Shown piece by piece: positions 23,101 through 48,900 of a stretch of DNA of 64,000 bases. Origin of the DNA: Folioceros fuciformis (lineage: Eukaryota). The first letter of the stretch is position 1. Every line of letters begins with the position of its first letter. The notes below the pieces were generated by a model. It did not search any database and was not told where the DNA came from. It saw only the letters and a program-made list of their open reading frames with translations. The stretch is from NCBI GenBank assembly GCA_049999805.1, contig JBNGIO010006272.1, forward strand, positions 1 through 64,000. The letters are read 5' to 3'. The translations under genes were made by a program, and so were the position numbers.

Positions 23101-26100
23101 TTTAGGTATGTGGATGTTATTCTCCAGCTCATAGAGAAAGCTGGAGATTTTGTGAGCGATGACATCTGGTACCGAGTCGTTCAATTCGTGACCAACAATG
23201 AAGATCTTCAGGTATTTGTCAGCCCATGTCTATGGTGAATGCAATCAGGAACAAAATTTTATATCACGTTTGGTAGGGCACCTTGAGGATGCCCTCCTTT
23301 CGTGGATCTCTCTTCGTGCCCATGTTTTAATTGCCTTCTTAGATACAGGCAGTTAAATTTGCATTGTAATGTGCAGGCTTATGCTGCTCAGAAAGCCAAG
23401 GAGTATCTTGATAAACCTGCCGTACATGAGACCATGGTGAAGGTGTGGCGAAACATATCATTTTTTTATCGTACATGTGAGTGGAAGTGTTAGATTCTTC
23501 GTATTGCTGTGTCTGGAAATTATTCATTTGGGAGTCTCATGGAACAGGTAGCTGGCTATCTTCTAGGCGAGTACAGTCATTTGCTAGCCAGAAGGCCTGG
23601 CTGCAGTCCGAAAGAGATTTTTGGGATCATCCATGACAAATTCCCGACAGTTTCGTATGTACACCTACCTTATTCTTAGCTAGTATGAAGTGACTCATGT
23701 TCGTACATTTGCATTCATGTGTCACATAATTATTCCAAGATTGGGTCAGTCGTGTCTTATGTTCCAACCTTTTGTTGCAGGACATCTACAAAGGCTCTGC
23801 TTTTATCAGCATATGTGAAAATTCTGATGCACTCACAGCCAGCAGATCCTGAGCTCAGAGATCTAGTCCTCTCTGTCTTCAGAAGGTCATAGCCAACTAC
23901 TCTTGTCTTTGATCCAGGAGCTCGACTAGGGGGATTTGTCGGTTTGAGCAGTACCTGCTTAATAGGCTTGCATAACTTAAGGCTTGTTGTGACTCCAGGT
24001 ATGAGAGCTTCATTGATGCTGAAGTGCAGCAGCGTGCTGTCGAATACTTTGCCCTTACACAGAAAGGAGCACCTATGGTGGACATCTTGGCAGAAATGCC
24101 AAAGTTCCCAGAACGTCAGGTACTATTTGATTTGTTAGCCACTGTAGCCAATGTATCTCTTCCACGATGTGCAATTCTAAAGCTGGTGTGTTCTCTTGGC
24201 AGTCTGCTCTCATTCGCAGAGCTGAAGACACTGAAAGTGATTCTGCTGAACTGAGTGCAACGAAAGTGAGGTTACAACAACAGACGTCAACTGCTGTGGT
24301 CCTAGCAGACAAGGTTCCATCCAATGGCACCTCTCATCACCTTCCAATAAGTCGGCCAACAGTTGCTGCTCGAAGTGTTGTAAGTGTTACTGCTCCTGAA
24401 GTTTTTAGCTAGGGTAACGGTACGATCATTGTTGGGGAGCTTTGCAAGGTGCAACCTAAATGAATTTTTCTGAAGACTTGCTTAGATTGCTGTGTAATCA
24501 GATGGTTTTTTCTGTGAACAGAAGAACCCTTTGCATGAGTGAGAAGAGCGATGTCTTCTGAAATTTTGATTCATGCCTGTATCTGAATTCACATTCCAAA
24601 TGTGGCTGCAGGATCGACCTGGAGTGTCTGACCAGGATCGGCATGTGCCTTATTCCAATGGGACTTCGGCAGCTCAATCTGGTGTCCCACCTCAGCCCGA
24701 GGCACCTGCCCGGGTTGTTGACACAACTGCGGATCTTCTTGGAGATTTGCTTGCTCCTCTTGCCATTGAGGCTGCGCCTGGGTCCATGGCGTCCCCTTCA
24801 ACAATACCAAATGTTATCCTGTCACTGGAGGCACCTCCAGGACCTTCTGCTGTTAGCGGTGGTGGTGTGGGCGATCCATTAGCCCTAGCACTTTACGAGC
24901 AGAGTTCCACTGTGCAGGTGAAGCCCATGTCTTTCAAGGCAATATGTATGAGGCTCAAAATCATCTTCAGTGCATTACATATCACCGCATGTGTGCATGA
25001 TGTTGTCGTTATTCCCAAGGGTGGTGCAAGTGTGAGATGACTTTTGTCATTTCTAACCATGAAATTGTGTTGGCTTGTCATGTCCTTCGATACAAGCAGC
25101 CTATAGGTAGTGTTGCTGAATGGTTCCGGGCTCTCACATTGAAAGACAGTGGCATACTGTATGAGGACCCCTACATACAGGCAAGAACGTTCGAGAAGTA
25201 TTTAGTACGGACAGTGTTGCACTTGTGTATCAGTTGCTTCTGAGTGTGACGAAGGTTTTTTTTGTTTAGAGTGGGATGTTGGGACTGAGCCCGTACGGGA
25301 CCTGCAGATTGGTATTAAAGCAGAATGGAGAGGTTCTTTGGGTCGGATTGTTTTCTTCCTCGGCAACAAGAGTACAGGGCCACTGCAAGCAGTTCGTGCT
25401 TTGTTTCTTCCTCCTCGACATCTCCGGGTTCAGCCATCACCTCTTCCTGAGAGTATTCCTCCCAGGGCGCAGGTCCTTCACCCTTACAGTACAAACTGTT
25501 TCTTTCTTCCTGAATCTAGCATTCTTCTCCTACATCACTTTCCCTTTTGTTGCGACTGACTTGTTGAAAGTTTGTGATCACAGGTGCAGTGTCCGGTTGA
25601 TGTTGCCTGCATTACTGCAAGCAGAGAGCTTCCTATGTTCGACTTCTCATACACAACGTCAGCTATTCCTGTAAGTATTCTTCAGTTTTGCTTCTTTACA
25701 TCGCTCATGAGCCGAAAATATCCTGACAAATTCTTGGTATAGGTGAACCTGAAGTTAAGACTTCCTGTAGTCATCGCCAAATTTCTTCAGGCCTCTCCGA
25801 TTTCACCAAATGATTTTGTTGTGCAATGGAAAGCTCTTGTTGGACCTCCCACAAAGCTGCAGGAAGTTGTAAGCCTTCACCGGATGTTGGGTACCTGCAG
25901 CATGTGTGGCTCGTGTACACATCGTGTTGGTAATTTCTCTTGACGATTTCTCTTGACGTAATAATGCAGGTTCGTGGAGTGCGTCCAATTCCACTCGTCG
26001 AAATGGCAGAGCTATTTACAAGCATCCATATCGCTGTTGCCCCTGGGCTTGTGAGTACATCAAGGCCCATAATAAGGATTGTCTGTGTCATGTTATAGCT

Positions 26101-26638
26101 AAAAGGAACGAAGTAGCTTGTCTCTACTGGAACGTTTAAATATGTGGTTGAATTGTTTCAGGACCCGAACCCGAATAACATTGTCGCAGCTGCAACTTTC
26201 TTCTCTGAGGCTGGAGGTGCCATCATGTCTCTGGTGAGTCCTAGATGATGGCGTGACAACGCCTACCCACTACTCACCTGCTCTTGTCATCACTAACAAG
26301 AACTGTGGGTCACAGATCCGGGTGGAAACTGATCCCGCTGACAGAACTCAAGTGCGACTTACAGTGGCAACTCCAGATCCCGCTGTGACATTCGAGTGAG
26401 TCTCGCATACAGTAGGCAGCGTGTGCTATGCTCTGCTCTTGAGAACAACTCTCTTATGGGTTGTGTCATGTTTTGCAGGCTAAAAGAGTACATCAAGGAC
26501 CATTTAGTGGATATCCCATCGGAAACGGCTGCATTTATACCCACGCCAGTCGCGCCTGCCAGTGCCCCAGCCCCTGCTCCTACGCCACAATCTTTGGGTT
26601 TCACGGGCCCTGCAGCTGCACTTGCTGGTCTACTGTAA
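20184..26638 (+). CDS. AP-2 adaptor complex alpha subunit (alpha-adaptin), more than 20 exons
   Basis: [72 protein letters not shown], and an ear domain; stop TAA at 26638. Confidence 0.96.
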
Positions 26639-27663
26639 CTTCTATGTTGTGTTGCTCAGTCTGGTACCCTGTCCTCAGTGTCACTGGCATAATGCTTATG
26701 ATTTCACTGCAGAGATTTATGCTTTATCGTGCAAGTGGACATCAGGAATTGCATGACCCAGTGACATCTGATGATGCGGTCTGGAACGGCCGTGTATGTT
26801 TGTGCCACATGCCTGTCAAATGCCTAATCTTCAGCCTCGCCAGGTGCATGGAACCTGTAACCATGTTTGCAGGAAATAGATGTCATTCTTGAGGGCACCT
26901 GTAAGAAAATGCAAGCCTGCCCGCTGCCGATTTATATTCTCAAATTGTATTGGTACTTCTGCTTGGTCTCTTGTTCCATTCCTTGTAACTGGAGTGTCAG
27001 TTTCGTATCCATGGCCTAGTGATTGCCAAGAGCATAGGGAGCCGGGACTTCAGGGTTGTCCGTTTTGTCAAGAAAATGAAATCTTCTGTGCTGAGCTACA
27101 GCGCCGATATCCTGAGGTCCCTCACGATAAGGCGAGACTTTTGGAAATTGTTTGTGTCGAAGTAAATTTGTTTAACCACAGATATAGATCTTTAACCGTA
27201 GCCCTACGGAGAATGATTGGTATCATTTGTCACCGCGTTGGATGCGGACCGTGTACCCAACAGCCTTCCTACGCCAGTTGTCTGACGCCAGTGTAAGATG
27301 CTTCTCTGGAACGGTTCGCAGTTGGATCTCCGTTTTCAGGACTTTCGCAGACTGCACTGTCGAAGTCTCAGGTTTGGCGATGGCAGAAGCATGCCTCATC
27401 GCTCAGGTGCTGCCGATTCCCTTCCTCCTGCCCCTCGGCTAGCTTGTGCCCGTGTGAGGCCAATTTCTTTCTCAAGCCGTGTGCGAATGACCACAGCGGC
27501 GATTTGGTTTCTGGTTGCGCACATCATTGGACCGGTTCCGCTTTGTCGAAACTGGAAAACCGGTCGACTCTGCAGGATCGCCGCCAGCAAGGTAGCATTG
27601 CTTCAGATCTGGTCGCAAATTCCGCCAGCCAGGACCTGAAGGCCTGCAGTGGACAAGTTCAGG

Positions 27664-29138
27664 ATGATTCAGCTCCCAGGATTGCGACGGTATGCGCGCC
27701 TGGAGACGAAACTTGAGCTTCTTCCTGTGACACAATTGGGGAAGAAGAAAAAGGCAGGGTGTCGGACTTGGATGCGTTTTGATTCTTCAGGGGTATCGGA
27801 GAGGATGGAGCTGGACAGAAATACTCTCGTGAGAATGGCCGGACTCTCTGCTCGCGATCTTCGAATTCTAGGACCTATATTTGCTCAGTCATCTTGCATC
27901 CTCGGTAGGGTGCTAGGTCAAGCCGCTGAATCCAGCCATCCTCTGTGGACCTTCAGCTTCCGTCCTCTGCTTTCCTCTCACGCGTGTGATGTGCTTGTGA
28001 TGCAGCAAGGGAACGAGCCATGGTGGTAAACCTGGAATTCATTAGGGCTATTGTGACGGCGGAAGAAGTTTTCCTTCTCTGGTCTTCCAATCAGCAGGTC
28101 ACGAAGTTCGCGGATGAGCTCAGTACGCAGTTGCCGAAGGTAGACTCTCCTCGTGTTGCTGAAGCAGCAGGAGATGGCATGCCGGAACAGCTTCCGTTCG
28201 AGTTTAGGGTTTTGGAGATTGCTCTTGAGGTGGTGTGCAGCTATTTAGACGCCAAGGTATACAATTTGGAACGGGCCGCACATGAAGCTATCGAGGCCCT
28301 GACTGAAAGTGTGAGCACTGAAAAGTTAGAGTCCGTCCGAACTGCGAAGAATGAGCTAACACGTCTGACTGCTCGCGTCCAGAAGGTGTTGTGCCTCTCC
28401 AAATTTGTCAAGATGTAGCCAGGCAGTTTTATGCAGTGCTTGACGTCTAACTTCCATCCTTTCCTTGTGGCTAAGGTCAAGGAGGAGCTTGAGCAGCTGC
28501 TTGATGATGACGAGGATATGGCGGATCTTTATCTTACACGTAAAATGGTGCAATGGCAAAATGTGGGCTCTCCACCAGAAGCTGAAATCTCTGGGAACGA
28601 ACTAGTTGCCCGACCCCAACCTGCTGCTGCGGGCTTCCGTGGCTCTGTAAGTGTAATCACGGCTACCACAGGGAGTGAAAACAGTGTGGACGAATTGGAG
28701 ATGCTTCTGGAGCTCTACTTCATGCAGACAGACCAAACTCTGAACAAGCTTGCTAGGGTAAGTTATCACTAGCCATTCATGTAACTTGTCCTGAGATGGG
28801 ATACAGGCGTATGCTTATGCGGGAACTCTTCCTGAATTGCTCGTCTCGTGCAGCTGAGAGGGCACATTCACGATACTGAAAACCTTGTTAACATCGAGCT
28901 GGACAACAAACGCAACAATCTGATTCAGTTGGAACTGATAGTGACAGCGGCATCTATGTCCATTGCCTTTTGTACTGCTGTCTGCAGCGCACTGAGCATT
29001 AATCCACCTGTCTCTTTGTATCATGCTGACAATGAGACCCCCTTTCGTTCCGTGGCGATTGGGGGGCCTGTGCTCAGTTTCCTCATTTTTACTCTTGTTA
29101 TATCCTATGCTCGCAAAAGGAAGCTTATCGGAGCTTGA
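27664..29138 (+). CDS. MRS2/CorA-family magnesium transporter-like protein (4 exons) with SIN replacing GMN
   Basis: RTWMRFD...ARDLRILGP...ILGRERAMVVNLEFIRAIVTAEEV, LPFEFRVLEIALE, DDDEDMADLYLTRK, ELEMLLELYF, NIELDNKRNNLIQLEL, then two TM helices. Confidence 0.93.
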
Positions 29139-30899: not shown

Positions 30900-33800
30900 G
30901 CTGTTTTCTCTTCCCTACATATAAAGCTCAATAGATTATATATTCTACTCGCATAAACACAAGAAAATCAGTAGGCTGACAAATGGAAACGATGGTCCCA
31001 CTTTACAAAAATCTAGGACTAACACCAAATGGAGCAAACGAAGCTCGATCTCTGATACAGAGCCCTCCTCCTGACTCATCACGGAGCTTGGTACATTTTC
31101 TTTTTTAAGAATGTTCTTGCAACTTCGTACCGTATGGATACGATCATCTTGGCAATGTAAGTAGCCCTTGAGATGGCTCCCATCTCTCCTGGTCTGAGAG
31201 AAATGTTTCTCCATCATGGTGACCGCAAAGTCATTCAGTGTCCTACATCCTTCATCACCTTATACACACGATTTTGCTGGAGCAGGCACTTCTGCAAACA
31301 CCACCACCTCAACCCTAATATTGCTCCACTCTGCATGGGATGCTGAGGAGCATTTGTAAAGTTGTAGTATGGTGGATGTCACATTCTAGTTCACTCCTTT
31401 CAAACGTGGTGTCCAAGGTAAAGTAAATGGTGGACGAACACACTACAGGCTAGGACCATAAGGAAGAAGTAGAGCACCTACTCCTAACCTATAAGGTACA
31501 CAACGAAGTCTTCGCTACTACTTCGGTTCCTACAACATTGCCACAACCATACTTCTTTGTATCCCTCCATCTACACGTGTCATTAGCACTTAGTTAGTAG
31601 ATATGGCCTTATAATCTTTCAAGCATTATCGCCCATATACCAACTGAAGTTCTCAATGCTTCTCTTCTGCAAGGGAAAAACCTTCCTTTCCAACATTGAT
31701 TTAAATGATCAGCCGGATATTTCAATGCATGAGGACAAGCATAGCAAAGTTTTTTTTTCTAAAAAAAATAAAAGAGAAATAGGAGAGATGTAGCCCTTCT
31801 CTTCCTACTTGGCGAATGCAATATCGCAATATCGCGGTATGCTACCTCTCTATGTCCACACGGGAAAGTGAGTGAAGAAAAAATGTTTAGACATTTCTTA
31901 GATTTTTAAACATGTAAGTACAAATAGGAATTGGCTAGTTGGTAGAGTCTTCAATCAACTATAATCTCAACCTTCGTTGCATAGCATTTAAAAACAACAC
32001 AAAGTTTCTTGTTGAATGTTTTCACTCTTAAAACTATTCACAGGGGTTCAAACTTGATTAATCAAAGTTAAAAATACTACAATGAAACATCGAGTTCAAT
32101 GAAGTGATATCAAAGATATTACAATGCAACATCATGCTAGATTAAGCATTATTCAAAAAACTATAAAGCAATAGTCCTTTACAAATGGAAGAGAGAATGA
32201 TTCAGAAAGTAATGATTTCTTCCCATTCATGTGGCTTTGGAAAATATTTTTTCTATTTCAAATTATGTATTATATGATTTTTCTCCAAGAAAAAAAAAAG
32301 CTAAAGTAAGTACAAGTTCAACTTCCAAATATCGTATTCTTAATGAAAAAAATGATGGTTCTAAGCTACAGAAGGATAATTCTTCAATTGGAATGCCTTT
32401 GTGGATTGCTTCTCTATTAGATGATATTGTGGTGCAAGAAGTAGAATATGATAACATTACCAGATTTTGGGTTACCAAAGTAGTATTTACTACTTTGGAT
32501 TTGCTTAGATCTAAGCCTCTTGCTTTCACTTTAGATAATAGCTTAGAAGAGCGTTTGGAAGCATATACTGCATCTTATTCTACAAATCTTAGAGCAAAAT
32601 CAAATTCCTCTCCATTTGAGGATTCTTTCTCACCTATTTTCTCATTTAATAACATCTTTAAAAAAATTAAATAGTGGTTAATTCGTAGGTGATCTAATTT
32701 ATTTAAACATGTTTTCATTGTACGAGATATTTCTCACAAGTTAATTATAGTATATCATAAGCAAAAGGGTTTGAGAATTTTGATTCAGAAAGATGTTAAA
32801 TAATTCACTTGAATTCATCTCATGAAAAAATTGTGTACTATCATCAAGATGTTGTCAAACTCAAGTTACATCTTAAAAGAGGCCAACAACTACAAGTAAT
32901 ATCTTACAATGCGTGTGAGAGAACTTTGAAGATAGAACATAGTGAAGGAAAAATAATGATTTCACTTGATTGCAAAATGACTCTGGATTACCTCTCTCAT
33001 GCTAAAGCTCTTTACGTACTTAAATCTATGTTGGTTTGATAATTAAACATCACCCATTTTTGGATGGGATGACAAATTCTACGTTCAAGCAGGTTGTCAA
33101 AACTTTGCCATCATTTTAGGTACATCTCTGTTGGATCACTTTCCTATGTGATTGAATTGCACTTGGTTAAAAATTGGGAGGGTGTGTAGTGTCTTCTTAA
33201 GAAAGTTCTTCATGAGTCCAAACCTTTCTATCTGGATGCTTGCAACCATCTAAATGTTCATAAGCATATTTGTGCCACTTTCCACAACCTCAACTCCCTT
33301 TGAGTCAACTTCTTTGGCATGGGGATGATAATAATAGGAATGAAAATGTTTCAATGACAAATAGAATAGAGGAATGCCCTTGCTACATAGTGGACTTGAT
33401 ATGTTTTCACTCACTAGCTCTTGAGAGTCTTACCTAGAGGGCCATGAATAAGGAGTTTTCATGATTTTATAAAGGAGTGTGTCAAGGTCCATCAAAACTA
33501 TAAGAATGTAGTTTTCCCTTTCTTCAGTGGTAACCTTCTAGTGGCCCTTACAAAGGGCATTGGCCAATGCGGTCTAGTCTATAGTATCCATTGTTGTGCC
33601 AAGGGCAGTGGCCAATGGGTTTGTTCTATAGTATCCATTGCTTTGCAAAGGACATTGGCCAATGTAGTGTGGTCTATTGAATAGAACCAAGTCTAAGTCT
33701 GCTGTTTCATCAGCAGTGGCGACAAGGTACATCCTTCATTGTTTGGCATCTTGTGGAATTGATATATGAGGAACCTAGTCTATAAGGAAGCTAATCCCTG

Positions 33801-33900
33801 GTTTAGTTGTTCTTATTTTTGGTGGTTAGGATCTCCCATCTCTTTTGGGTAGTTAAGATTTTTAATTCTCTTCTTCAATAAATTTTGTATGCTTTAGATG
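30900..33900. mobile_element. Highly decayed AT-rich retroelement-like relic
   Basis: Gene-free AT-rich block. Minus-strand fragments near 33250-33550 (LKHFHSYYYHP.., ..ENYILIV) loosely resemble a Ty3/gypsy integrase core. Confidence 0.3.
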
Positions 33901-34271
33901 AGGGACCACTTCGTGGATGTTAGCCGCTGTGCATGGATTACTTATATAGATTCTGGCCGTTCCAGGCTTTCTTTTTGATTCTCCAAATGTTGTTTACCAG
34001 TAGGCAGTTTCACATACCTTACGTTTTCCGAAAGCACACCGTGGTGATTGCGTGTAGCTTCAGGTAGTTGATCAGTCGCGACACTTTCCCCTGGTTCATC
34101 TCATGTGCGCAGCTTTCGCCCAGCGAGGTGACAACTACGTACCGTTGGAACATAACCTTTGAAGATGCTTTCCCGCCATGTGTGTGATCATGCAAGGCCA
34201 CCAATGCTAGTGCGTTGGGTCGGCTGTTGCTACCTCCGATTCAGGCCGGCTCTCTTATACCATGAGCAGGA

Positions 34272-36541
34272 ATGGTTCTTGGGACTGCCTGGTTGGGCCT
34301 CTGTTGGGACCTGCTGAGCATGGGGGTGGCGCATGGTTCCGGGCATGGACAAGGCAACAGTGGGTTTGACGGCGCAACGGGTCTGGATCCGGCAGTGGGT
34401 GGTTCGGAGAGGATGGCGTCCATTGTGGGAGCGTCCACCACCCAGAGGCACCCTGGCCCATGGAGGGAGCTAGGATTCAGAGCTCTGGTCGAAGAGATTT
34501 TGTGGCACGGGGGCTCAGCTGGAGATGCCTGGCTCACCAGTGCGTCCCATCAGGTGAAAGAAGAGAGAACTTGTGTACCTGTGTGTGGTGAATAACCGTT
34601 GATTACAAGGTTTGTTTGGGTGAACCTTGTAAGAGCGGTGAGCATGTGGGTGCTGGAGTTGGCGCAGGTGGCACAGGTGCTCTTGACGCTGCCTTATTCG
34701 TTTGCTCAGCTGGGATATGCGTCTGGCATCATCTTTCAGCTCTTTTACGGCCTGGTGGGATGCTGGACCTGCTTCTGTGTAGCAGCGCTGTATGCGGAGC
34801 ATCGTGTTCGGCAGCAGAAGGATGGCGTGACGTTGAAGAATCACACTGTTCAGGTAGGTTGGGGTGAGAGTAATCAGCCGTTTGCTTCAAAATGAGTGAC
34901 AAATCATTATAAGCATCGCTTGCCTTGACAGTGGTTTGAAGTGTTAGAGGAGCTCCTTGGTCGGCGCTGGAAACTTGCTGGGCTCCTTGTCAACTGCCTC
35001 TACCTCTTCGCTTCTGGCACCATTCAGATCATAGCCTGTGGAAGGTAAGCGTTACAAGCCAGCCATGAGCTAGCTAGCCCTTGCCAAGGGCTGGCTCGAT
35101 GAATAAAAACCGTGGAGGCATGGCTGAGGTGCTAAAGAACTGAGCCAGGGATTTGCACATACAGCACCGTCTACCTTGTCAATGACAACTTGGACAAGAG
35201 GACATGGACGTACGTGTTTGGGGCAGGCTGTATGCTGAGTGTCTTCATCCCTACCCTTCACAACTTTCGAGTCTGGTCCTTCACGGGCCTGTTCATGACC
35301 ACCTACACTGGCTGGTACATGACCATCGCTGCTCTTATCCACGGCCAGGTGAGCCTGCCGGCTTCTCTCTCGCTTGCTTCCACTCCCATCATCCAGCCAG
35401 ATGTTAATGTTCCTGGACCTGTTTTCTCCAGAAACCTAGCCCTGTGAAGCACACAGGACCGCAAAACCTTGTCCCGTTTTTCACGGGAGCCACCAACATT
35501 CTCTACACCTTCGGCGGCCATGCGACCACAGTGTGAGTCTCCATGGGCCGCCGCAGATCCCTCCCATCCACGGTTTGTGCTTGCTGGTGACTGTTGTGCG
35601 CAAGCGTGCAGAGAAGTGATGGACTCCATGTGGAAGCCACAGAAGTTCAAGTGGGTGTACGTGCTTTCCACCCTCTACGTCTTCACACTGACACTGCCGT
35701 CCGCCAGCTCAGTCTACTGGGCTTTCGGTGACAACATGGGTTCCATTCCCAACGCTCTGTACGCCCTACCTCGGACCCCATTCCGGGACACCGCTGTAGT
35801 CCTCATGCTCATCCACCAGGTACACCAACAACCGCTGACGTGTGAAGTCTCATTCCCTCATCTCCCTTTCGTTCTGATTCCGCCATCCCCAGCAACATCT
35901 GCAGGACTGTGCATCCACCATGTCATGTTTGTGCAGAAGAACCTCCACGTGAATCAATACCAATCAATTTGCTGTGGTTTCCTCCCAGTTCTTCACTTTT
36001 ACTGTCATCAGCATCCCAATTTACACAGTGTGGGAAAAGCTGCTGGGCGTACACACCTCAATAGCCAGTAAATTCTTCCTCAGAGCGGCAATCAGGCTCC
36101 CGGTCGGCCTCTTCATCTGGTTCGTTGCTCTAGCAATCCCCTTCTTCGGCCCCATCAACTCTGCCGTGGGAGCCTTCCTCGTCACCTTCGGAGTGTACAT
36201 AATCCCTGCCGCAGCCTTCAACGTCTTCTACTCCAGCCCATCTGCCCGAGAGGTACATGACTCTTTAGGGAAGAGTTTCCTCAAACCCAACAACATAATT
36301 CCGTTGCAGGGACTGACCGACACACCCGCAGAACGCCGTGGAGAAGCCCCCGTTCTTCATCCCTAGTTGGAGAGCCATCTTCGTGCTCAACACCTTCATA
36401 GTGATGTGGGTCTTCATCGTGGGATTCGGCTTCGGCTGCTGGTCCAGCATCACCAATTTCGTCAAGCTCGTGCACACTTTTGGCCTCTTCGCCAAGTGCT
36501 ACCAGTGCCCCGTCACAGACGAACACCTGAGCCTGCCGTGA
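34272..36541 (+). CDS. AUX1/LAX-family auxin influx carrier-like, divergent paralogue A (8 exons; start could be 34320)
   Basis: LWHGGSAGDAW..|VAQVLLTLPYSFAQLG, LDKRTWTYVFGA, TGATNILYTFGGH, MWKPQKFK, PFFGPINSAVG, TFGLFAKCYQC; GT-AG introns. Confidence 0.93.
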
Positions 36542-37291
36542 ACAGGAACTTTGTTGAATTCATGGCGGTGCAGTCACAGCAATGTGTAATTTGCCAGTCA
36601 AATCGTACACATCTGGTATGCGCACTTTCGGGCGGCCCACCCTGTTGACCGAGATTTACTCTCACAGGACCTGATTATGTACGTCTCCAGGAGTTCTTGC
36701 TCGCGTGACCCACGCCAACACAGTGTGAACACGGCACCACACGCCTGACCATGACTGCATGCGCTGCCACTACGACCCCAGTCGCGGCGCTTGTCGGTTA
36801 GAATCGATGCATAGACTCCAGTCCGGTCAAGCGAATGTCTTCGGAGCTAGTCGGACAAAGCCGGCAGTGGGCTCTCTCTATCTCCTTCCTAGGAGCCTTG
36901 TCTCGTCCAAACCGAAAGGCGTTAGGCCTTCTACGAGGCGGTGGGATATTGACCTCCTTTACAGCAGAGCCCGAGAAGGAGTGGATCATTCGTACAGCCA
37001 TGCGCAGTCGCACTGAGATTGAAATTCCTACCCCTGGAGGATGGATATCCGATGCCCTGGCCTGCGCAAAAGCGGCTTTCTTTCGGTAGGCTGAGGAATG
37101 CTGAATCTTTTGACTCCTGTACATGGGCTGGACCTCCCCTGGCACTGGCCAAACCTGAAGAGTGAAGGAAAAGCTGCGGCTGGCAAAGCGAGCTTCGAGC
37201 TCGAGTTCCGGCAGCTTATGAGGCAGATGATGAAGACTCTCCCTGGGATATCCTCAGCCTGAGTCTGGGCGGGGGCTTGAAGGTCGTGGCC

Positions 37292-39325
37292 ATGGGGGCA
37301 GGAGAGCGGAACGGTGTGGTGCCTGCGGACTTGGAGGGCTCTGGGTGGACAGGGGGAGATGGCAGCCGGCACGACCAGATCGAAGAGGACGTGGGAGATG
37401 GAAGGGGAAACGTTAAGGGATCGTCCCGTGGTAGTTTTTTGTACTGGGCTCTGTGGAACGGAGGCTCCAGCTTTGATGCCTGGCTGAATGCAGCGTCCAC
37501 GCAGGTGGCCCAGGTGCTGCTCACTCTGCCTTACTCCTTCTCGCAGCTGGGAATGGTGTCCGGCATCTTCTTCCAGATCTTCTACGGGATCATGGGCACC
37601 TGGACTTGCTACCTCATCACCTGCTTATACGCCGACTACCGCTCCAGGAAGGAGAAAGAGAACCCAAGAGCATTCGAGAAGCACACCATTCAGGTAATGC
37701 CCAGTCGTGGATTGCGTTCGGTTTATGTGTCGCAATTCGATCGTGACATTGAAACATGAGTTCCACGAGGCTGATGGCTCATTGCTCTGCAGTGGTTTGA
37801 AGTTCTGGGTGGACTTCTCGGGCCCCGATGGAGGATGGTAGGCCTGGTGTTTAATGGCTTCGTGCTCTTCTGTACTGCAACCATCCAGCTCATAGCTTGC
37901 GCGAGGTTAGTATTCGTAATCAACCATCATCTCCTCCTACCTAATTGCGATGTCCATGACCGACACTGGAGAAGCCCACAAAACCTCGGGGCCATGGCAG
38001 CAATGTATACTACCTCAACAACCATCTGGACAAGCGAACATGGACATACATCTTCGGGGCGGGCTTCATGTCCACCATACTCGTGCCCGCTGCGCACAAC
38101 TACCGTGTGCTGTCAGCCATGGGCATCACCATGACCACATACACTGCCTGGTTTCTCACCATTTCTGCTGTCAAACACGGCCAGGTGCGATGTCGATCCC
38201 CATTTCACTTCCCTCTCCTTCCATTCCGTACCTCGTCTTCATCTAACTGCCGCTACTGGAGCGCCTTCGCATGCAGATCGCCAACGTGCAGTACACGGGA
38301 AGCCACCATGGCAAAGTGGCCTACTTCACAGGAGCCACCAACATCCTCTACACCTTCGGCGGCCATGCCGTCACTGTGTACGCATCCAAGCACATGCCTG
38401 CCCATGAAAGGTCGTCTTCCCCGGCTGCGATGAATGACTAACACTCGCAAACTCTGTCCAGGGAGATCATGCACTCCATGTGGAAGCCCAGGAGATTCAA
38501 GGTGGTGTACCTGGTGGCCGTCCTCTACATCTTCACCCTCACAATCCCGTCTGCAGTTGCCATGTACTGGGCGTTCGGGGACAAGCTGTTCAAGAACGCA
38601 AACGCCTTCGCCGTGCTGCCCAAAACCAAGTGGCGGGACGCTGCCGTCATCCTCATGCTGGGCCACCAGGTGAGATCCAAGCCACCACACGTGCCCCGCG
38701 ACTCACTTCCCACCCCTCTTGCGTCTTCCTTCCTCGCTTGCCACTCACAATCTCCGTCCCCCCCTGCCACACCACCAGTTCTTCGAATTCGGCATGGTGA
38801 GCCTGCCCTTGTACATCATGTGGGAGAAGCTGGTGGGCGCGCACGGCAAGCACTACCTGGTGAGCACCATGTCGCGGGTGCCGGTGGTGCTGGCCATGTG
38901 GTTCACGGCGCTCATGATTCCCTTCTTCGGGCCAATCAACTCCGCCGTCGGATCCCTTTTCGTCTCCTTCGGCGTCTACATCATCCCTGCCGCCGCCTAC
39001 ATCACCTTCTACAGAAACGCCTCCGCCCGCGCTGTAAGATGCCGCTTATTCGAATTCATTGGTTTGTACGATCTCAGCTCCAACCGGACGTCGCTGACCA
39101 ACGCCTGGACCGAATCCTGACGTTGTGCAGAGCGCCGTGGAGAAACCCCCCTTCTTCCTCTTCAGGAGCTGGTATACAGTGTTCGCTGTCAACATCGTGA
39201 TTGTCTTGTGGGTTGTTGTTGTCGGGTTCGGCTTCGGCGCCTGGGCCAGCGTCACCAACATTGTGGACCAGATCCACACTTTTGGGCTCTTCGCCAAATG
39301 TTTCCAGTGCCCCAAACGCTCGTGA
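37292..39325 (+). CDS. AUX1/LAX-family auxin influx carrier-like, divergent paralogue B (7 exons)
   Basis: LWNGGSSFDAWLNAASTQVAQVLLTLPYSFSQLG, LDKRTWTYIFGA, YFTGATNILYTFGGHAVT, PFFGPINSAVG, TFGLFAKCFQC. Confidence 0.93.
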
Positions 39326-39614
39326 GTCGGGACTGAAGACGACGAGACGAAAATAATACAAACGAGCTTTTTGAAAGGATTTCTTTTCGAGAAGGGTTTC
39401 GCCTCAGTCGGGCCGGAGACTGCTCATGCGTCAGGCTGGCGTCATGACCAACTACACCAAACCTTGAGCAAAAACATCATTTACTCAAATAATATTAGTC
39501 TAAAATTATGTACAGTTCCTTCCTTGCCCTGCTACTTGGACTTTTCTGCATGGATACAAGTTTATAAGAACTATGGGATTATGTATTTTTATTATACTTT
39601 AATATAATTTAAAC

Positions 39615-40300
39615 TTCTTCAACTACTCCAAGTACCGGGATACAAAATCCATCCTTAGTGAACTCTAACAGAATTCTTCTTCTTCTTCAACTCCTCCAAG
39701 TCCTAGGACAAAACAATCCATCCTTGGTGAACTCTAATAGAATTCTTCTTCTTCTTCAACTCCTCCAAGTCCTGGGACACAAAATCCATCTTTAGTGAAC
39801 TCTAGTAGAATTCTTCTTCTTCTTCAACTCCTCCAAGTCCCAGGACAAAAAATCCATCCTTGGTGAACTCTAGTAGAATTCTTCTTCTTCTTCAACTCCA
39901 GAATTCTTCTTCTCCTTCAATTCTTCCAATTCCTAGGAAAAAAAATCCATCCTTGGTGAACTTTACTAGAATTCTTCTTCTTCTTCAACTCCTCCAAGTC
40001 CTAGGACACAAAATCTATCCTTAGTGAACTCTAATAGAATTCTTCTTCTTCTTGTTCTCCAAGTCCCATGACAAAGACCTATCCTTAGAGGAATCTAATA
40101 GAATTTTTCTTCTACTACTCCTCCAAGTCCATGACAGAAACTTATCGTCAATAGACTCTAATAGAATTCTTCTCTTTCTTCAACTCCTCCAAGTCCCATG
40201 ACAAGAAATCCATCCTTCGTGGGCTCTAGTAGATTTTTTCCTTTCTTCTACTCCTTCGACATTTAGTGGGCTCTAATAGAGTTCTTCCTCTTCTTCTACT
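39615..40300. repeat. About 61-bp minisatellite with (CTT)n core, roughly 10 progressively diverging copies
   Basis: Repeating CTTCTTCAACTCCTCCAAGTCCTAGGACAAAAAATCCATCCTTGGTGAACTCTARTAGAATT. Confidence 0.9.
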
Positions 40301-41610
40301 CCTCTAACATTCATGCTAGATAACAATCTAAGAAGGATATCATAAGTGGTGTCATCTAATGTAATGACAAGATGCTTGGTACTTGTCCTAATCTTCTAGT
40401 CATACACATTATAATTATTAATTTATATTTTTATAAAAATATTTCTCCTCATATTATTAATAAACTCAAAATGACATAATTACCATTATTGGGTTTAGGA
40501 TTTAGGATTTAAAGTCCTTGGAACGTTTTTGAAAAAAATAACTATAATAATCGAAAAAAAAACCCCTTTCCAGCAAAGAAATGTAAGGGATCTTATGCTG
40601 GTTTTTGAAGACGAATAACTTTAGAGACAAAGGTAGTGCAACAAAGTTCCGTCCTCATTCGGCGTCAGTAAAATTCTTCCTCCCTCACTACGTAAACGTT
40701 ATTCTTAAATTCATATAATAGAATTCTTGTTGGTATATGGTAGATAAGATTCTACCCACAGACAACACGGATATATGACGCGTGCCGGCATTGGTTTAAC
40801 GGCCCATGGTTCTGATGACGGACTTCCCGGGTTGGTTTGAAACCTCCTCCGAGACGTTGGTCTGGGCTCTTAACCTCATCCGTGGGTCGGGTGTATTTTT
40901 AGGAAGTCGGGAGCTGAGTTGTAGAAGCTGCTAGTCGAGTCGAGCAAGAAGGATCGGACATTGATGCGGAGGATCATTGTGCGTGCCGGCAAGAGCGCAT
41001 TGCATCACAAGTTCGTTCTTCATTTGCTACCAGCAGCGGAATCACAGACACTTTGCTTCACGGAGCCTGGCCAGCTCTGATCGCGTCAATCACTTCTGGT
41101 TTCTCCTGAGGTGAGAGCTGATTCTCGCTGTGTTCTGCGATTGACGCTTATCGCCAGTGCTTTCTGGCAGGAGGGAAACGGGTGTGTTGCTCTGGCTTCT
41201 GCTTTTTAGAACGGATCTTGTAAGCTTGACTGGTGGAGGACGGAGGTGGCCAGGCCGATGTCTCCCGGAGCTCGCTTCCGTTGGATCTGACGGGGAGGGG
41301 GGATGGTTAGGTTTCCGAGAGCGCGTCCAGCCTTGCTGTGTTGGAACTCTGTGGTGAAGGGGAATTTGTAGAATCCAGATCTTGCTGTGGAGACTGGCTT
41401 GAGAAGCTTGTCTGGGCTGGCAGCGGGGGACTTTGTGGCAGCTGAATTGAGTGGTTTGTGTATGGATAATGTCGAACTCGTTGGTGCTGGCTCCCTGTGG
41501 TCGTAGCACGGGAGTTTGGAGTTGCGGGGCCCTGTGTGGAGTAAAGCTTGGTTTGCCGACTGTGTGATCTGTTTGAAGCGGGAGGAGGCGGACGAGGGTA
41601 GGTAGTAAGC

Positions 41611-42975
41611 ATGGTGGCTGTGTGGGAGTACCGCATCCCACTGCCTTTCACGTTGGAGGAGTATAAGACTGCGCAGTTGTACATGGTGGCGAAGATCAGT
41701 GCTATTGAGTCCAAGGGCAGCGATGGGGATGGGGTTGAGGTGCTGAAGAACGAGCCCTATGTGGATGACAACAGGGAAGGGCAGTACACGCACAAGATTT
41801 ACCATCTTGCTAGCAAGCTTCCAGGATGGCTTGTGGCGCTTGTGCCAAAAAAGGCGTTGCTTCTGGAGGAGGAGGCTTGGAACTCGTACCCTCACTGCAC
41901 CACCGTAATCAAGTGTCCCTTCTTCAACAAGTTTCGCCTGATCCTTGAGACCACACATGTAGCAGACTGTGGGACGACAGAGAACGCCCTGAAGTTGGAT
42001 GCGAAGACGTTGAAGAAGAGACATGTGGAGTTTATTGACATTGCGACGGACCCTGTGGAGAATTACGTTGAAGAAGAAGATCCGTCCAAGTATTCTTCTG
42101 TCAAGACGGGGAGGGGGCCACTCTTGCCTGGCTGGCAGAAGCAATGTAGGCCTATGATGTGCGCATACAAGCTTGTGACAGTGGATGTGCCTTACTGGGG
42201 TTTCGGCTCTCGCTTGGAAAAATTCATTTCTAAGCAGGCTCAGCGGAAAATTATGCTGGAGGGTCATCGGAAGTGTTTCTGCTGGATGGATGAATGGCAT
42301 GGTTTAACAATGGAGGATATTCGAGTTATGGAGGAGGAGACAGCACAGGCTATTAGGAGGGCTCGTGCCACAGCCCTACGGAGGCATGGCTCAGACGCTG
42401 GGGAATTGGTAGAAGATGCCACTGAGGAGGACCACTGTGGGAGCCCTTCAACAGCTGACTTGCTCCGGGAAGATCGCGACGCTGCTCCTTTGAGACTGCG
42501 AGAACTCGTTACTAATTCAACCAGAAGCTCCAGAAGCAATTCCAGGAACAGTTCCAGAGAGCTCACTAACTATGCAAGGCACCCTAGTCTTCTCGGATCT
42601 GCGGCTGCTCTTGGTGTACCTTTTGCTTCTGGGTCAGATCTTCAGCAGAGGCAAGATGGCACTCCCCGCTCGCCGTCACCACTGAAGTCTCCTATGGGGA
42701 AGCCGCTGTCACAGTCTCCTCCAACATCGGTATCTCATGCCGGTGGACTTGTTGAACCTCTTCACACTTTTGGATCGGCGAGCCCATATTTTGATGATTG
42801 GAAAGCAGAAGCGAAGGAAGCTGAGAGTGACTCAGATGCAGCTGAACTCGAGAACTGCGTGGATGTGCTGGACAGAGCTATAGCATGGGCAAAGTCAAGA
42901 GCCAAGTCCAAAAAGCTGGCCTCCAAACAGCAGGGGCCTCAAGTACATCCCATGGAGACTATGCTAAGTCCATGA
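41611..42975 (+). CDS. START-like phosphatidylinositol transfer protein (PITP/RdgB-type) with Ser-rich C-terminal tail; intronless CDS
   Basis: EYRIPLPFTLEEY..AQLYMVAK, GDGVEVLKNEPY, GQYTHKIYHL, EEAWNSYP, KTGRGPL, MCAYKLV, HRKCFCWMDEWHGLTMEDIR. Confidence 0.92.
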   Translation: MVAVWEYRIPLPFTLEEYKTAQLYMVAKISAIESKGSDGDGVEVLKNEPYVDDNREGQYTHKIYHLASKLPGWLVALVPKKALLLEEEAWNSYPHCTTVIKCPFFNKFRLILETTHVADCGTTENALKLDAKTLKKRHVEFIDIATDPVENYVEEEDPSKYSSVKTGRGPLLPGWQKQCRPMMCAYKLVTVDVPYWGFGSRLEKFISKQAQRKIMLEGHRKCFCWMDEWHGLTMEDIRVMEEETAQAIRRARATALRRHGSDAGELVEDATEEDHCGSPSTADLLREDRDAAPLRLRELVTNSTRSSRSNSRNSSRELTNYARHPSLLGSAAALGVPFASGSDLQQRQDGTPRSPSPLKSPMGKPLSQSPPTSVSHAGGLVEPLHTFGSASPYFDDWKAEAKEAESDSDAAELENCVDVLDRAIAWAKSRAKSKKLASKQQGPQVHPMETMLSP

Positions 42976-43647
42976 ATGGCAGCGATTCGTTTCAAGTTGT
43001 GGCATGGTCCGTCTCCTCCGTGTGGGGTCATGGAGCACTTCGGCGTCGTGGATTCCTTTAGGCTAACCTGTCCTTGAGATACTTGTTTTCCATCGGTCCT
43101 TTCTTTTGCCTTGCCGTTTGCAAGCATGACGATTGGTTGCTTAGACTCCTGTCAGCAATAGGATTGTTGACCTCATTCAGCCCGTTGCCTAAACTGGCTG
43201 TCCAGGGCTTGAAATGGGCAATTGTCCGCCTCTTTGTCCATCTGTTTTTGTTATCAGCAAGGTTTCTCCATGTTTTCCACCTGGGAACAGTAAAGCTAGC
43301 AAACAGCGAAGCTAGCAGACAGAAGGGGTGGATGTGTGTGGGACTCCTGACCGACACCGAACTTTTCAGCCCTGGTGACTTAACCTACTGTTCGTCGTGT
43401 AGCCAAAAGGTCGGTTGCATTTTGGGGAGGCACCTTTATGCCGTATTGTACGGTGGAAAAAACANNNNNNNNNNCATTTTGGGGAGGCACCTTTATGCCG
43501 TATTGTACGGTGGAAAAAACAAGTCCATATTCGCAATAAACAACGCTGCATTCGCCATGTCCTAAGGTTTCACCCTGTGGAGATCGTGATGGCTTCAGGC
43601 TCAACGACGGAGCCTGGCAGCAATTGTAGCACAAATGGGTGGATACC

Positions 43648-45702
43648 TCAGTGAGCTTTGGGCGGGCATTGAAAGCATTTGTCGAATACTCCAAATGTTG
43701 ACACTAGCGACACAAAATGCTTCACGCTTGCCCATCCTCCCCAGCCCATTCCAATGACGGCAATCCATACCACGACGAATGCATTGATGAGGTAGACGAG
43801 GATCCAGCTTGGAAAGAAGAATGGAGGCTTGGCCACCGCTTTCTGTAAACAATGTCCGCCATCAGACTCATCTGGTGAAGACTTTCGTGAAAATAGAAGC
43901 TTGCACGTCACTCACCCTGCGAGCCTGATCAGTGCGGAAGACCATCATGTGGGCCGCTGCAGGAATGATGTAGACGGTGACGGTGACGAGCAATGCTCCA
44001 ACTGTGGAATTGATTGGCCCGAAGAAGGGGAAGATGATGGCGAAAAACCACACGGGCAACACAACAGGTATTCTTGCCACGGCCTTCAGGAGAAGGCCCC
44101 CTGTCTCATGAATGCCGATGATCTTCTCCCACACGAAGTAAACAGGTGTGATGGCAAATCCGAAGGTTATGAACTGGGGGAGAAGAAGGCAGGAGCTGCT
44201 GTGAGGACCAGGAGGTGGGCAAGCATTATCAATGGACAGACACAAGGACTCATGCGAGCTGGTCTTACCTGATGGATGAGCATGAGAACGACGGCCATAT
44301 CACGCCAGGGAGTCCTAGGCAACAAGTAGAGGACGTTGTTTTGCTTCAACAACCTGTCTCCGAAGGCCCAGTATCCAGTGATGGCAGAAGGTACGGTCAG
44401 AGTCAGCACATACATCGTCGCGTACACGTAGACAACCTTGAACTTTTCTGGTTTCCACATAGCATCCATAATCTCCCTGTCACCAGCAACCAGGGGAATG
44501 AGTCCGCAGGCCCAATTTCCAGAATTGGTAGGAACTTGCACAAGAGGCATACGCTCACACTGTTGCAGCATGTCCCCCGAAAGTATAGAGAATGTTGGTG
44601 GCACCAGTAAAATACAGTTCCTTGTTGTGGGCCCCTACATGGGATGTAGGCCGAACCTGCATCAACAGGCATGCGAGCGATGAGAATTGTGTCTTACCCC
44701 AATCGGTTTCTCGCATCGCTTCGACAGGAAAGTAATGAGATCGTGATGAAACCTGTCCGTGAACGATCGACCCGATGGTAATATACCACGCAGTGTAGGT
44801 TGTCATCAAAATGCCTAGGAATGACCAAATTCTGTAGTTGTGGAAAGTGGGGATGAAGACAGTAAGCCCACAGACTGCCCCGAAGATGTACGTCCACGTC
44901 CTCTTTTCCAGGCTGTCGTTGATGAGGTAGATGTTGCTGCACCCAACGGGATTCAGTCAGGACCGTCCTCACCCTCACACCACAACACCACCAGCCTGCA
45001 TTGCATCGACAACAGCATGACAACAGAATCAGACCATCACCTGGCGCAGGCAATGAGCTGAATCACAGAGCCGAAGAGAAGAAACGTGACATTGAAGAAC
45101 AAGCTGACCGCCTTCCAGTAGGGACCCAACAGCCCATCCAGCACCTCGAACCACTGCAACCCAACACAGCTCAGTCTCAAAAAAAAATCAGCAAGCAGCG
45201 ACGCATTTCACAAGCCACCCACTCCCCGCCCACAGCACCTGGATGACGTGATTCTTGAAATTGTCAGACTCCTTCTCCTTCCTACCCCGGTACTCGAGGT
45301 AGAGGGAATTCATGAGGTAAGCGGCCCAGCAGCCCAAGAAGGCGTACAGCAGCTGAGCTGCGACCCCGGACGCCAGTCCCATTTGCGCAAACGAGGTCGG
45401 GAGCGTGAGCAGAACTTGCGCAACCTGCCAGCCAAGCCAGACAGACAAAACCACGTGATCGAGGAACAGAATTGCATTCCAAGCTTGCAAACCCGGTCCC
45501 GGTGATCCAACTCCACCTGATTAGAAGCCGAGCTGAACCAGGCATCGTAAGCGGAGCCGCCGTGCCAGACATACTTCCTGAACGTCCCGGCTATGGAGGA
45601 GTCCTCCTGGCCCGATGACAGCCGCAGTTCCCGCAGCTCCAGCGCCTCCTCCTCGTCAGCCGCGCGCGGTTGGGAATTCGCAGCCCCGACCTCCAGTCCC
45701 AT
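43648..45702 (-). CDS. AUX1/LAX auxin influx carrier, paralogue C (closest to canonical; 8 exons)
   Basis: VWHGGSAYDAWFSSASNQ|VAQVLLTLP, FNVTFLLFGSVIQLIACA, YFTGATNILYTFGGH, FITFGFAITP, FPFFGPINST, TFGVFDKCFQC. Confidence 0.94.
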
Positions 45703-45799
45703 GGCTTCCTGACAACAGCTGTCCCTGCCCAATGCGGTCGTCCCGTGCCACAGCTGCGCAATGCCGGATACGTCAGAGCAATTAGCAGAGTTCAAACGG

Positions 45800-45930
45800 A
45801 AAGGCGAGGCGAGGCGGAACGGGACGGCGGGCGAGGCCCGGCGGGGCGGGTCTGGGCTGGGCGAGGCGGGGCGGGGCGAGGCGGGGCGAGGTTGAGGCGA
45901 GGCGAGTGGACGAGGCGGGCGAGCGCGAAG
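45800..45930. repeat. GC-rich GGCGA/GGCGG pentamer low-complexity tract upstream of LAX-C
   Basis: Read directly in the sequence. Confidence 0.7.
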
Positions 45931-48900
45931 GAAACGAAGGGAAGGAGACGAGAGGAAGACGTTTCGAAACGAACGGAAGGCGTTTTCTCACTGGAAGAGG
46001 AGAAAGCGGCGGTGTTGGCGGAAATCAGCTGGGGATACGGGAATCCTACACCCACTGCACAGACAAACAGCAGCCGGACAACATATGTACACAGGTACAC
46101 CTTCGCCTTTATCTGTTACTAGGCGCCTGCCTATGGCCATGAGCCGCAACATCTCTAACACGGACAATGTAGAACATTAAGCGGGATAATATTAGGCCCC
46201 GACCAAGCGCCCTGTCTTGAAAGCGTATCGTGTGTGATCGATCCACAACGTGGTCGTGGAGTATCATATCTGGTCATAGGATATTGTAGGTACTTACTTC
46301 AGTTTGGTTTAAGGGCATTTTACAATAGTTTGCTGGTTTGCTTCTTGGCTGCTTTTGGTAGAAGCACCGAGCGACTCTCCTATCAAAGCCCCGGGCTCTG
46401 GTGAGATGAGATGCCATAGACCAGGCCTGCAAACGGACGGACCCGTTCTTGGAGCAACTGGGAAAATGTGTGACGAAGGTTGGTGGAAAAAGTGAGAGAA
46501 GAAGAAGGAAGGAAAGGCGGGATGCTTTAATGGCTGCATTTCCCACAAGCTAGAGGATGATGCTGCAAGATCTGAACCGGGGCAGGTACTGTGTGTGGCC
46601 TTCCTTGTGTTGCTTGGAGGTTGTTCACAAAAGCGTGCAGGTGTGAGAAAGAGGGGTATGTTATGTGTGTATGTAAGTTGATACGTCATTTCTTTTCAGT
46701 TGCTGTTGTAGAGGAGGAGTCTGGGGAGGTAACACCGTCCGGTGAGAGATGTCTGAGCTACCGATCCGAAGCTGGCACTAGAAGTACCCGCCTACCGCAA
46801 CACCTACCCCAGCTGATGGCAACTGTTCACGCCCGGGCTGCAGCGGAGGAGGAGGCTGGAAGTTTGGCGTGTTTGTGAAACCCGGTTTTGGAGCTGGGAT
46901 GGTCGAGTTTGTGCGAGAGTGACAAGGCTTGGCTTCTGACGGCGCGCACGTGAATGCTGACAGCCACCCTTGTTTGGGACTTCGATGGATCTTCATACAG
47001 TAAGTATGAATCTTGTTGGAATTGGGTTGCTGCGGGCCTCTCATGGGACGTCGTGTGTCCAGTGTCTGCCTCTGGAGTTCTGGAGTGTGACATACCTGTA
47101 GCAGCCAGCAGGAGAGGGAAGGCAGTGACGGGATTGGACGCCTTTGAGACTCCCCGGCGAGCATTCGTTTGAGATAGACATCCAGGGCACGGGACTTCTG
47201 GGCGGTGTATGTGTGAGTGAAGCAATCCACATCGTGGCTGAGAGAGCAGGACGGTGTTCAGTGCTCACGAAACTAGTGGTTGGCTGTTTTGGATCGTGGT
47301 TCGCTGGCTGTAGTGAAAGACCCACCACATGTGCCAGGGATGAAAGCTTTGCCAGCAGGAAGGACTGCGACTCCAGTGCCACTAGCCCACCGACCTGCTG
47401 CATCCTGTAAAGTTGCAGTCCACCAGCCCGCCACCGCATGAATGGACAATAGGAGATGGTACCCATCATCTGAATTCAACTTGGTACATATGTACGCTGT
47501 ATGCTGTACCTGCCTGCCTGGCAAGAGGTTGTGAGCTTCCGCCTCTTTCAGGGAGCATATGTATGTATGTCGATCATTGCAACAGGTGACGCATGCGCGG
47601 CCATGATTTCGGGTCAGGTGGAGGTGGCACCCGCCGGAAGGTGACAAAGAATTAGGCGAAGTGGTCATAGCTCTGCATCCCAACCCTTCCCCTTCAAGGT
47701 GACGTAGAACTCCACTGCCCGACAGCCTGCGAACAGTGAACATCCCACTCACTGCGCGCAGTTAGGACTGCAGTCAATTCCCTGTTCTCTATAGCCGCAC
47801 TGTGCACGGCAAGGTTCAAGCCTCTCTGCTGCCAAGTCCTGTCAATGAACAGCCTCCAGAGTGAGACCTGCCCTTCGATTTCTGCAGCCTGACCAAAGGG
47901 GTCAGATCAAGTGCACGGAGGCTGGCCTTGCACATGTGACTGGGACATGTGCTGGTGCAAACAACAGGACAAACAATAAGATACAAGCATACAGCTCTGC
48001 ACAAAGACGGTTCACGGCCTTCAGGCTTACGCACGCAGGAACGCAGCTTCCACATAACAAAGATCATGAATGCCCAAGTCAACAGGAAACAGACTTCTCT
48101 GATATTGCTTTTGGTGCTCCGTCCATCAAAGTGATGAGTATAAGCGACACCGGCGCCTTTCCTGTGGTAGGGTACCTGGACAGGACTGCTGCAGAGCAGT
48201 CCCTGACACCCCTTGGTCGGCACGCTTTCTGTTCGCTCACCACCAAGCCCCTTCTCATATCGACCTACAAGCTCTGGCTCTGAAGTCTTTGGACCACTCC
48301 TCGACCCTGATTCGTATCCTCCACAGGGTTCCACTTTGAATTACTCCATGCCAAGCCTATCACCAGGGAGCACTGTCGCAACTTGCTGTAATGGGCTCTG
48401 CCAGACTGTCCCGAAGCGCCGCCATGCCAGTCTTCTCGTCAGTTTAGCCTCACAGATTTTACTCACCCATCCTCTCGATGTTCGTGATCACCGCAGACCT
48501 CTCTGACGTTCTTTTGTTTTCCTTTACTGGCTCATGTCTATTCACTATCCCCAGGGGAAATGGGTTTGCAAGCTGGATGTTCTGTGCTGAACCACTGCGG
48601 CATCGGTCTCGGCGTCCACTGTAACCTTAACCAGGCATGTCAACTACCCTGACCGTACAAGACGCTGCCTGGCTGCCATACCAAACGTCTCTGCAGTCAA
48701 ATAGAGTAGTATTCTTTGTGGCAACAGATCCTTTGGCCCCACCAGGCACCACTACAGGGGGGTCAGGTGAGCCCCAGCACATCTGTCTTATTCCCCTATA
48801 GTCTCTGGAGTGCAATCATGGCTGATGAGCCTTCCTCATAGCACAATGATCTGCGTCTCCTCTCTCTGAATTTACCAACCTGTTTGCTCTGCCGTCCTTC

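Follow-up and report, generated by a model that had tools for sequence, protein, structure and literature searches.

Two non-canonical AUX/LAX-family genes beside a canonical auxin importer orthologue in the hornwort Folioceros fuciformis

Gene content, expression and selection at the locus

Here we describe three genes of the AUX1/LAX family, which we call A, B and C, in a 64,000-nucleotide stretch of the hornwort Folioceros fuciformis (GenBank assembly GCA_049999805.1, contig JBNGIO010006272.1, positions 1 to 64,000; hereafter the window). The initial annotation, made from the letters of the window alone, had recognised three intact AUX/LAX genes oriented +,+,- within 11.5 kb, and gene models, matches to the Pfam family Aa_trans and spliced public contigs all bear this out (Table 1). 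A and B keep the acid-binding site of the canonical importers of indole-3-acetic acid (IAA) while the residues around the ring are swapped, which makes another cargo probable; on balance, we favour the view that both import carboxylic acids by proton coupling and that these acids are not IAA, or that the two are far less selective for it.

All the introns of the three genes (20/20) are of the GT-AG type and match in protein position and phase, the frames hold no internal stops, and B is without the first intron present in A and C. Identity between the proteins is 55–56% by pairs (264/482, 259/460 and 244/445). Each of the three exons tested, one per gene, matched Aa_trans, and the Protein Data Bank (PDB) matches of one C exon were AUX1/LAX3 chains only (4/4 sequences). 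The start codon of A may be its second Met (34320); an out-of-frame ATG 10 nt upstream of the first Met opens a 35-codon frame (34262-34369) that runs over both candidate starts and is possibly a regulatory upstream open reading frame of this gene.

Table 1. Features of the AUX/LAX locus, in positions of the window
Feature	Coordinates	Strand	Details
Gene A, non-canonical AUX/LAX-family carrier	34272..36541	+	8 exons, 515 aa
Gene A exons	34272-34553, 34668-34853, 34932-35044, 35165-35348, 35432-35532, 35612-35819, 35989-36252, 36332-36541	+	
A-B spacer, A stop to B start	36542..37291	+	750 nt; 16 ATGs; inside the spliced contig holding both genes
Gene B, LAX C-type carrier	37292..39325	+	7 exons, 485 aa
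Gene B exons	37292-37693, 37793-37905, 38001-38184, 38277-38377, 38462-38669, 38779-39033, 39131-39325	+	
Degenerate 68-bp tandem array, between B and PITP gene	39614..40255	none	
Phosphatidylinositol transfer protein (PITP) gene	41611..42975	+	Intronless; PF02121 E 5e-102; covered by public contigs
Gene C, canonical (LAX D) auxin importer orthologue	43648..45702	-	8 exons, 475 aa
Gene C exons	45702-45517, 45424-45239, 45153-45041, 44936-44753, 44656-44559, 44476-44269, 44173-43916, 43842-43648	-	

A, B and C are expressed, as judged from public contigs that skip the predicted introns. Four public sequencing runs were compared with positions 33500-46500; none is recorded as RNA, and their RNA status is presumed. 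The displayed exon joints (15/30) cover introns 1-4 of A (run X1), 2-5 of B (X1 and X2) and all seven of C (X1 and X2). One X1 contig (record 1) spans 34229-39622 with 4096 aligned letters, the length of spliced A, the spacer, spliced B and flanks, which means that all 13 introns of A and B are absent from it. X1 possibly comes from the source organism itself and is not independent of the assembly. Run X2 stems from a relative, about 90% alike, with orthologues of B, C and the PITP gene, and holds A as two low-depth pieces only, one of them unspliced; X3 and X4 contributed short conserved pieces only. The proviso that A and B might be unexpressed can thus be dropped, and intact gene models together with spliced contigs rule out pseudogenes or assembly artefacts for all three genes.

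The single spliced X1 contig that takes in both genes and the spacer may reflect read-through or overlapping untranslated regions, and the relative's B contig matches back to about 36870, inside the spacer. A dicistronic A-B mRNA was considered and not adopted: a single contig over both genes does not prove one transcript, and translation of B by scanning is unlikely because of the ATGs in the spacer.

Gene B is under purifying selection. Residues are numbered throughout as in LAX3, a register verified on a LAX3 orthologue (17/17). B was compared with its transcript in X2 (424 differences, 40 displayed, 28 in the B coding region): within codons 52-209 the change is silent in 9 codons and a replacement in 8 (pN/pS 0.27, p 0.007), none of them being at 56, 59, 60, 143, 144 or 151, and all the differences in the N-terminal tail (9/9) are replacements. 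Neutral evolution, which the initial annotation had left as a way out, is thereby excluded for B. It is very improbable that A and B are poor ligand binders persisting as sensors, regulators or decaying duplicates: the long end branches of the two proteins (1.06 and 0.73) and the sparse pieces of A in the relative's run would agree with this, whereas the intact frames, the full splicing in X1, the selection on B and the retention of both histidines and R192 speak against it.

Placement of the three genes in the AUX/LAX family

Relatives were gathered by a profile search (8000 candidates scored; best 120 of 824 taken) and a search of cluster representatives, which yielded further lycophyte members of the group of B. 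The best seven of 135 matches of B come from Diphasiastrum and Selaginella. Among the rows examined, this group had no member from mosses, liverworts, ferns or seed plants, which does not by itself establish absence. The main tree has 30 rows, long-branch rows being left out, and was used instead of a quick 60-row tree that came with long-branch warnings. In the 30-row tree C lies inside the canonical clade with AUX1 and LAX1-3 (support 98/99), B groups with nine Selaginella and Diphasiastrum proteins (94/85; 91 in the quick tree), and A and B fall within a 22-row clade (100/99) that unites the groups named LAX C and LAX D (the canonical clade) by Singh et al. 2018 (PMC6275028). We equate the group of B with LAX C from the Selaginella expansion that the consulted part of that review describes. 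At 31 diagnostic sites B is lycophyte-type at 19, canonical at 9 and other at 3, and C is lycophyte-type at 3, canonical at 26 and other at 2.

Approximately unbiased (AU) tests rejected a clade of A, B and C (p 1.8e-5), a clade of B and C (p 2.2e-5) and a lycophyte-only duplication (p 8.2e-5). These results rule out, respectively, a recent local triplication, B as a derived copy of C, and a lycophyte-only origin of the LAX C/LAX D split. B falls in an old clade that lycophytes also have, most likely LAX C. Since B groups with lycophyte proteins and its host is a hornwort, the split of this sister lineage, to which A would probably belong as well, from the canonical line would predate the divergence of living land plants. 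The initial annotation had read A and B as possibly neofunctionalised carriers. The changes at the substrate site, on which this rested, hold good; the implication that both genes are local, remodelled copies of the canonical one is not supported, and B in particular is misplaced as a modified canonical copy.

The position of A is less sharp. It lies outside the canonical clade in the best tree, a clade of A and C is not rejected (AU p 0.137), and a clade of A and B is neither recovered nor rejected (AU p 0.135). A is outside the canonical clade in both half-protein trees, its N-terminal half joining the clade of B (Shimodaira-Hasegawa-like approximate likelihood ratio test, SH-aLRT, 90) and its C-terminal half having no clear placement. 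We regard it as distinctly unlikely that A alone arose from C through lineage-specific duplication and had its pocket rebuilt later, or that it is a C/B gene-conversion mosaic: besides the AU result, A shares more rare residues with C than with B (8 vs 5) and keeps T323, whereas both half trees and an A-C identity of just 56% argue otherwise. A half-and-half chimera is not borne out by the diagnostic sites or the half trees, and 55% identity argues against a recent A-B tandem pair. A adjoins the clade of B and may belong to LAX C.

At least seven family members, A, B and C included, were counted in the 87 Mb genome. The four others (contigs C3425, C6013 with two, and C2281) have open frames and the same seven intron positions; they fall in LAX A- and LAX B-like clades, one pair of genes next to a protein of Ceratodon (99/95) and the other pair among proteins of Sphagnum, Calypogeia and Wollemia (100/100). 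Two of the four stand in tandem; there is also one gene with a 2636-nt fifth intron and one with S at position 60 for the conserved Q. Outside these groups, diatom and unnamed proteins (P0126, P0130, P0134, P0251, P0253 and P0258) form a distinct AUX/LAX-like clade, in which both histidines are mostly kept.

Substrate-site residues and their pattern of change

Pocket residues were taken from the consulted parts of the 2025 structure papers on LAX3 (PMC12364708) and AUX1 (PMC12337342), and divided by us into an acid/proton set of six (A59, Q60, Q151, Y242, H247 and H319) and a ring or indole-pocket set of eight (N56, F143, L144, V249, T323, F326, A327 and P330); the AUX1 paper counts the equivalent of A59 as a ring contact. 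In an alignment of 215 proteins, 160 of them canonical, each ring residue is kept in 150-160 of the 160. A, B and C all keep the acid/proton set whole (6/6) and the exit residues H189, R192 and E252. At the ring, five of eight residues are changed in A (N56H, F143Y, V249T, F326V and A327I), five in B (N56T, F143V, T323E, F326M and A327V) and one in C (V249A). C is itself not fully canonical: it carries V249A and is changed at 28 of the 267 positions that are at least 95% conserved. Against this background set B has an excess of changes at highly conserved ring positions (4/6 vs 58/267, P 0.02).

The motifs with which the initial annotation had separated the genes are all present as it quoted them (SHQ, STQ and SNQ in A, B and C, with three motifs each in transmembrane segments TM3 and TM8), and TGATNILYTFGGH is indeed kept in the three proteins. 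On the AUX1 and LAX3 structures the substitutions of A and B fall on N56, F143, T323, F326 and A327, which the consulted parts of the structure papers name as facing the substrate; the proviso that the changed residues might face lipid thus falls.

P0006, which represents Selaginella in the clade of B, was modelled with AlphaFold2 (predicted local distance difference test score, pLDDT, 83); the model matches LAX3 and AUX1 best (root-mean-square deviation 1.6-3.2 Å; 1.7 Å for LAX3), with other amino acid-polyamine-organocation (APC) carriers far lower. Obtained on this relative of B, the match confirms the residue register, not a substrate. Membership of the AUX/LAX family is indicated by Aa_trans, by AUX1 and LAX3 as closest solved relatives, and by a LeuT fold with 11 TMs as judged on P0006.

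A simple parsimony count was made over the 272 positions that change no more than once across the 11 rows of the canonical clade. Among the 10 rows of the clade of B, the mean number of changes is 3.4 for the eight ring positions vs 1.2 for 258 others (p 2.4e-4; p 8.4e-4 against 80 positions within approximate bounds of TM1/3/6/8), and 0.33 for the six acid positions. E323 occurs in B and in 8 of 14 lycophyte rows. In the deeper outgroup clades position 59 is G, position 242 is mostly F and the canonical ring set is absent altogether, and from these states the polarity of the pocket change was taken: in the simplest reading, A59 and Y242 would be older than the split between the clade of B and the canonical clade, and the N56/T323/F326/A327 pocket younger, so that the canonical IAA pocket may be a derived state.

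Several points weigh against a changed substrate in A and B or against the phylogeny behind it. For the pocket, the enrichment at the ring of A is not significant alone (3/6 vs 57/267, P 0.11); the LAX3 mutations F326A and A327F are harsher than the natural F326M/V and A327V/I; and the summed ring side-chain volumes, by standard tables, are 1165 and 1117 in A and B vs 1118 in LAX3, so that IAA might still fit in another pose. Within the clade of B, fast change at the ring may be relaxed constraint rather than tuning, the acid site is conserved at a borderline level (p 0.051), and parts of it are lost in three highly divergent rows of Selaginella that the 30-row tree does not include. In the trees, the bootstrap of 94 for the clade of B falls short of a star, A joins that clade with 72/37 support only, and A at the diagnostic sites is LAX C-like at 10, canonical at 11 and other at 10.

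In another reading A and B remain IAA importers, with a lower affinity, a wider auxin range (phenylacetic acid, indole-3-butyric acid) or the ring bound in a shifted pose, and are set apart from C chiefly by expression. It would be consistent with the whole carboxylate, proton and exit network, the similar pocket volume, a modelled fold that in P0006 equals that of LAX3, and the occurrence of F143Y and L144C in a moss protein of the canonical clade. We consider it fairly unlikely all the same: the exchange concerns five ring residues that are near-invariant among the 160 canonical proteins, within LAX C there is free variation at the ring positions, and the consulted part of PMC12364708 reports that F326A and A327F abolish IAA uptake by LAX3. 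We keep to the reading of a different or less selective acid importer, with a pocket that, as its summed side-chain volume indicates, is reshaped and not closed.

Proposed mechanism, genomic context and known systems

From its sequence, C would be the canonical H+/IAA importer of the plant, working by symport as in LAX3. A and B most likely share the rocking-bundle cycle of the canonical importers: the substrate carboxylate would be held by Q60, Y242, Q151, the A59 backbone and protonated H247, H319 would serve as a second proton site, and R192 would guide the anion out to the cytosol. The rebuilt indole sub-pocket (N56, F143, T323, F326 and A327) would suit a differently shaped carboxylic acid and select for IAA weakly or not at all. 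The cargo could, speculatively, be another aromatic acid or an amino acid, and E323 of B could, equally speculatively, pair with an amine or hydroxyl of the substrate. Proton coupling, a plasma-membrane location and the loss of IAA selectivity in A and B are all properties that we infer. In a wider scenario, which we hold to be rather unlikely, the locus would keep both products of the pre-land-plant duplication that created the IAA-selective importer, the acid/proton site (A59, Y242) coming first and the indole pocket being fixed in LAX D only; LAX C would be an overlooked hornwort and lycophyte family of proton-coupled importers for other organic or amino acids, with a hypervariable pocket of five residues as its tuning element, and A would stand between the two as a third lineage that might share a transcript with B.

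As for the surroundings, the PITP gene is a bystander between B and C, convergent with C, and the transcripts of the two touch or overlap at their 3' ends within 43417-43531. Inside this interval an N gap (43465-43474) has on its flanks a duplicated stretch that is single-copy in the X1 contig, probably an assembly artefact. Elsewhere the window holds two long intronless pentatricopeptide repeat (PPR) genes that have E motifs and extended repeat units (11683-15642, +; 53740-56688, -), a DDT/PHD/WHIM chromatin protein gene (8205-10807, -), an adaptin large subunit gene (about 20485-26900, +) and an MRS2 magnesium transporter gene (27990-28418, +). The genome has two PHY matches, one being an open GAF-PHY-PAS-PAS-kinase frame, a neochrome (L018:1-3783), and an LCIB gene. 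In the parts consulted, PMC4525182 limits the known neochromes to zygnematalean algae, ferns and hornworts, and PMC8075897 reports LCIB as hornwort-only among land plants, against which PMC7027989 lists LCIB/C for other non-angiosperm land plants too. Taken with the small genome and the E-motif PPR genes, these markers by themselves make a hornwort host highly probable, and the neochrome and LCIB genes speak against a Selaginella.

The genome has all four LAX clades, three members standing in one expressed 11.5-kb locus. B is a new hornwort member of a named clade; what the locus offers is a clear-cut pocket difference that can be put to the test, and an earlier date for the split. The structures narrow the difference between A or B and C to about five residues, which makes a direct pocket swap between C and B possible, and A and B could serve to probe how auxin import arose. 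Counting AUX/LAX matches as auxin importers in seed-free plants overstates their number, the canonical pocket being present in one of the seven genes here. The clade itself was already known; our literature searches found no report of a hornwort LAX C or of the LAX C pocket pattern, and a search on the clade names LAX A-D found the 2018 review only. The consulted portions of PMC3355733, PMC5927418, PMC8521068, PMC10015382 and 10.1101/2024.05.22.595400 add no pocket analysis, and the last records an AUX1/LAX gene that rises under nitrogen starvation in Anthoceros, with the paralogue not stated in that portion.

Compared with known systems, the three genes show both similarities and differences: (i) Arabidopsis AUX1 and LAX1-3 (LAX D; PDB 9lva and 9h61; consulted parts of PMC12337342 and PMC12364708) resemble A, B and C in the fold, the carboxylate residues, both histidines and the R192 gate, and C, which also has their intron positions, is their orthologue; unlike them, A and B lie outside the canonical clade in the best tree and have most of the indole pocket replaced. 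(ii) B resembles the LAX C proteins, grouping with those of Selaginella and Diphasiastrum and having T56, E323 and most of the diagnostic residues in common with them. As far as the consulted part of PMC6275028 goes, LAX C has 12 members in Selaginella moellendorffii, of unknown substrate, and LAX B and C come from mosses and lycopods only, in a Phytozome sample with no hornwort named in the text or supplement text. That account predates the structures and has no pocket analysis, whereas here hornwort members are linked to a LAX D gene. (iii) LAX A and LAX B, like A and B, keep Q151, H247, H319 and R192 and are without the canonical ring residues, but they differ in having G59 and F242; A and B, with A59 and Y242, have the completed acid site in common with LAX D. 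(iv) With amino acid/auxin permease (AAAP) and APC carriers such as SLC38A9 and AdiC the three genes have the LeuT fold and Aa_trans in common, the structural matches reaching 9-15% identity.

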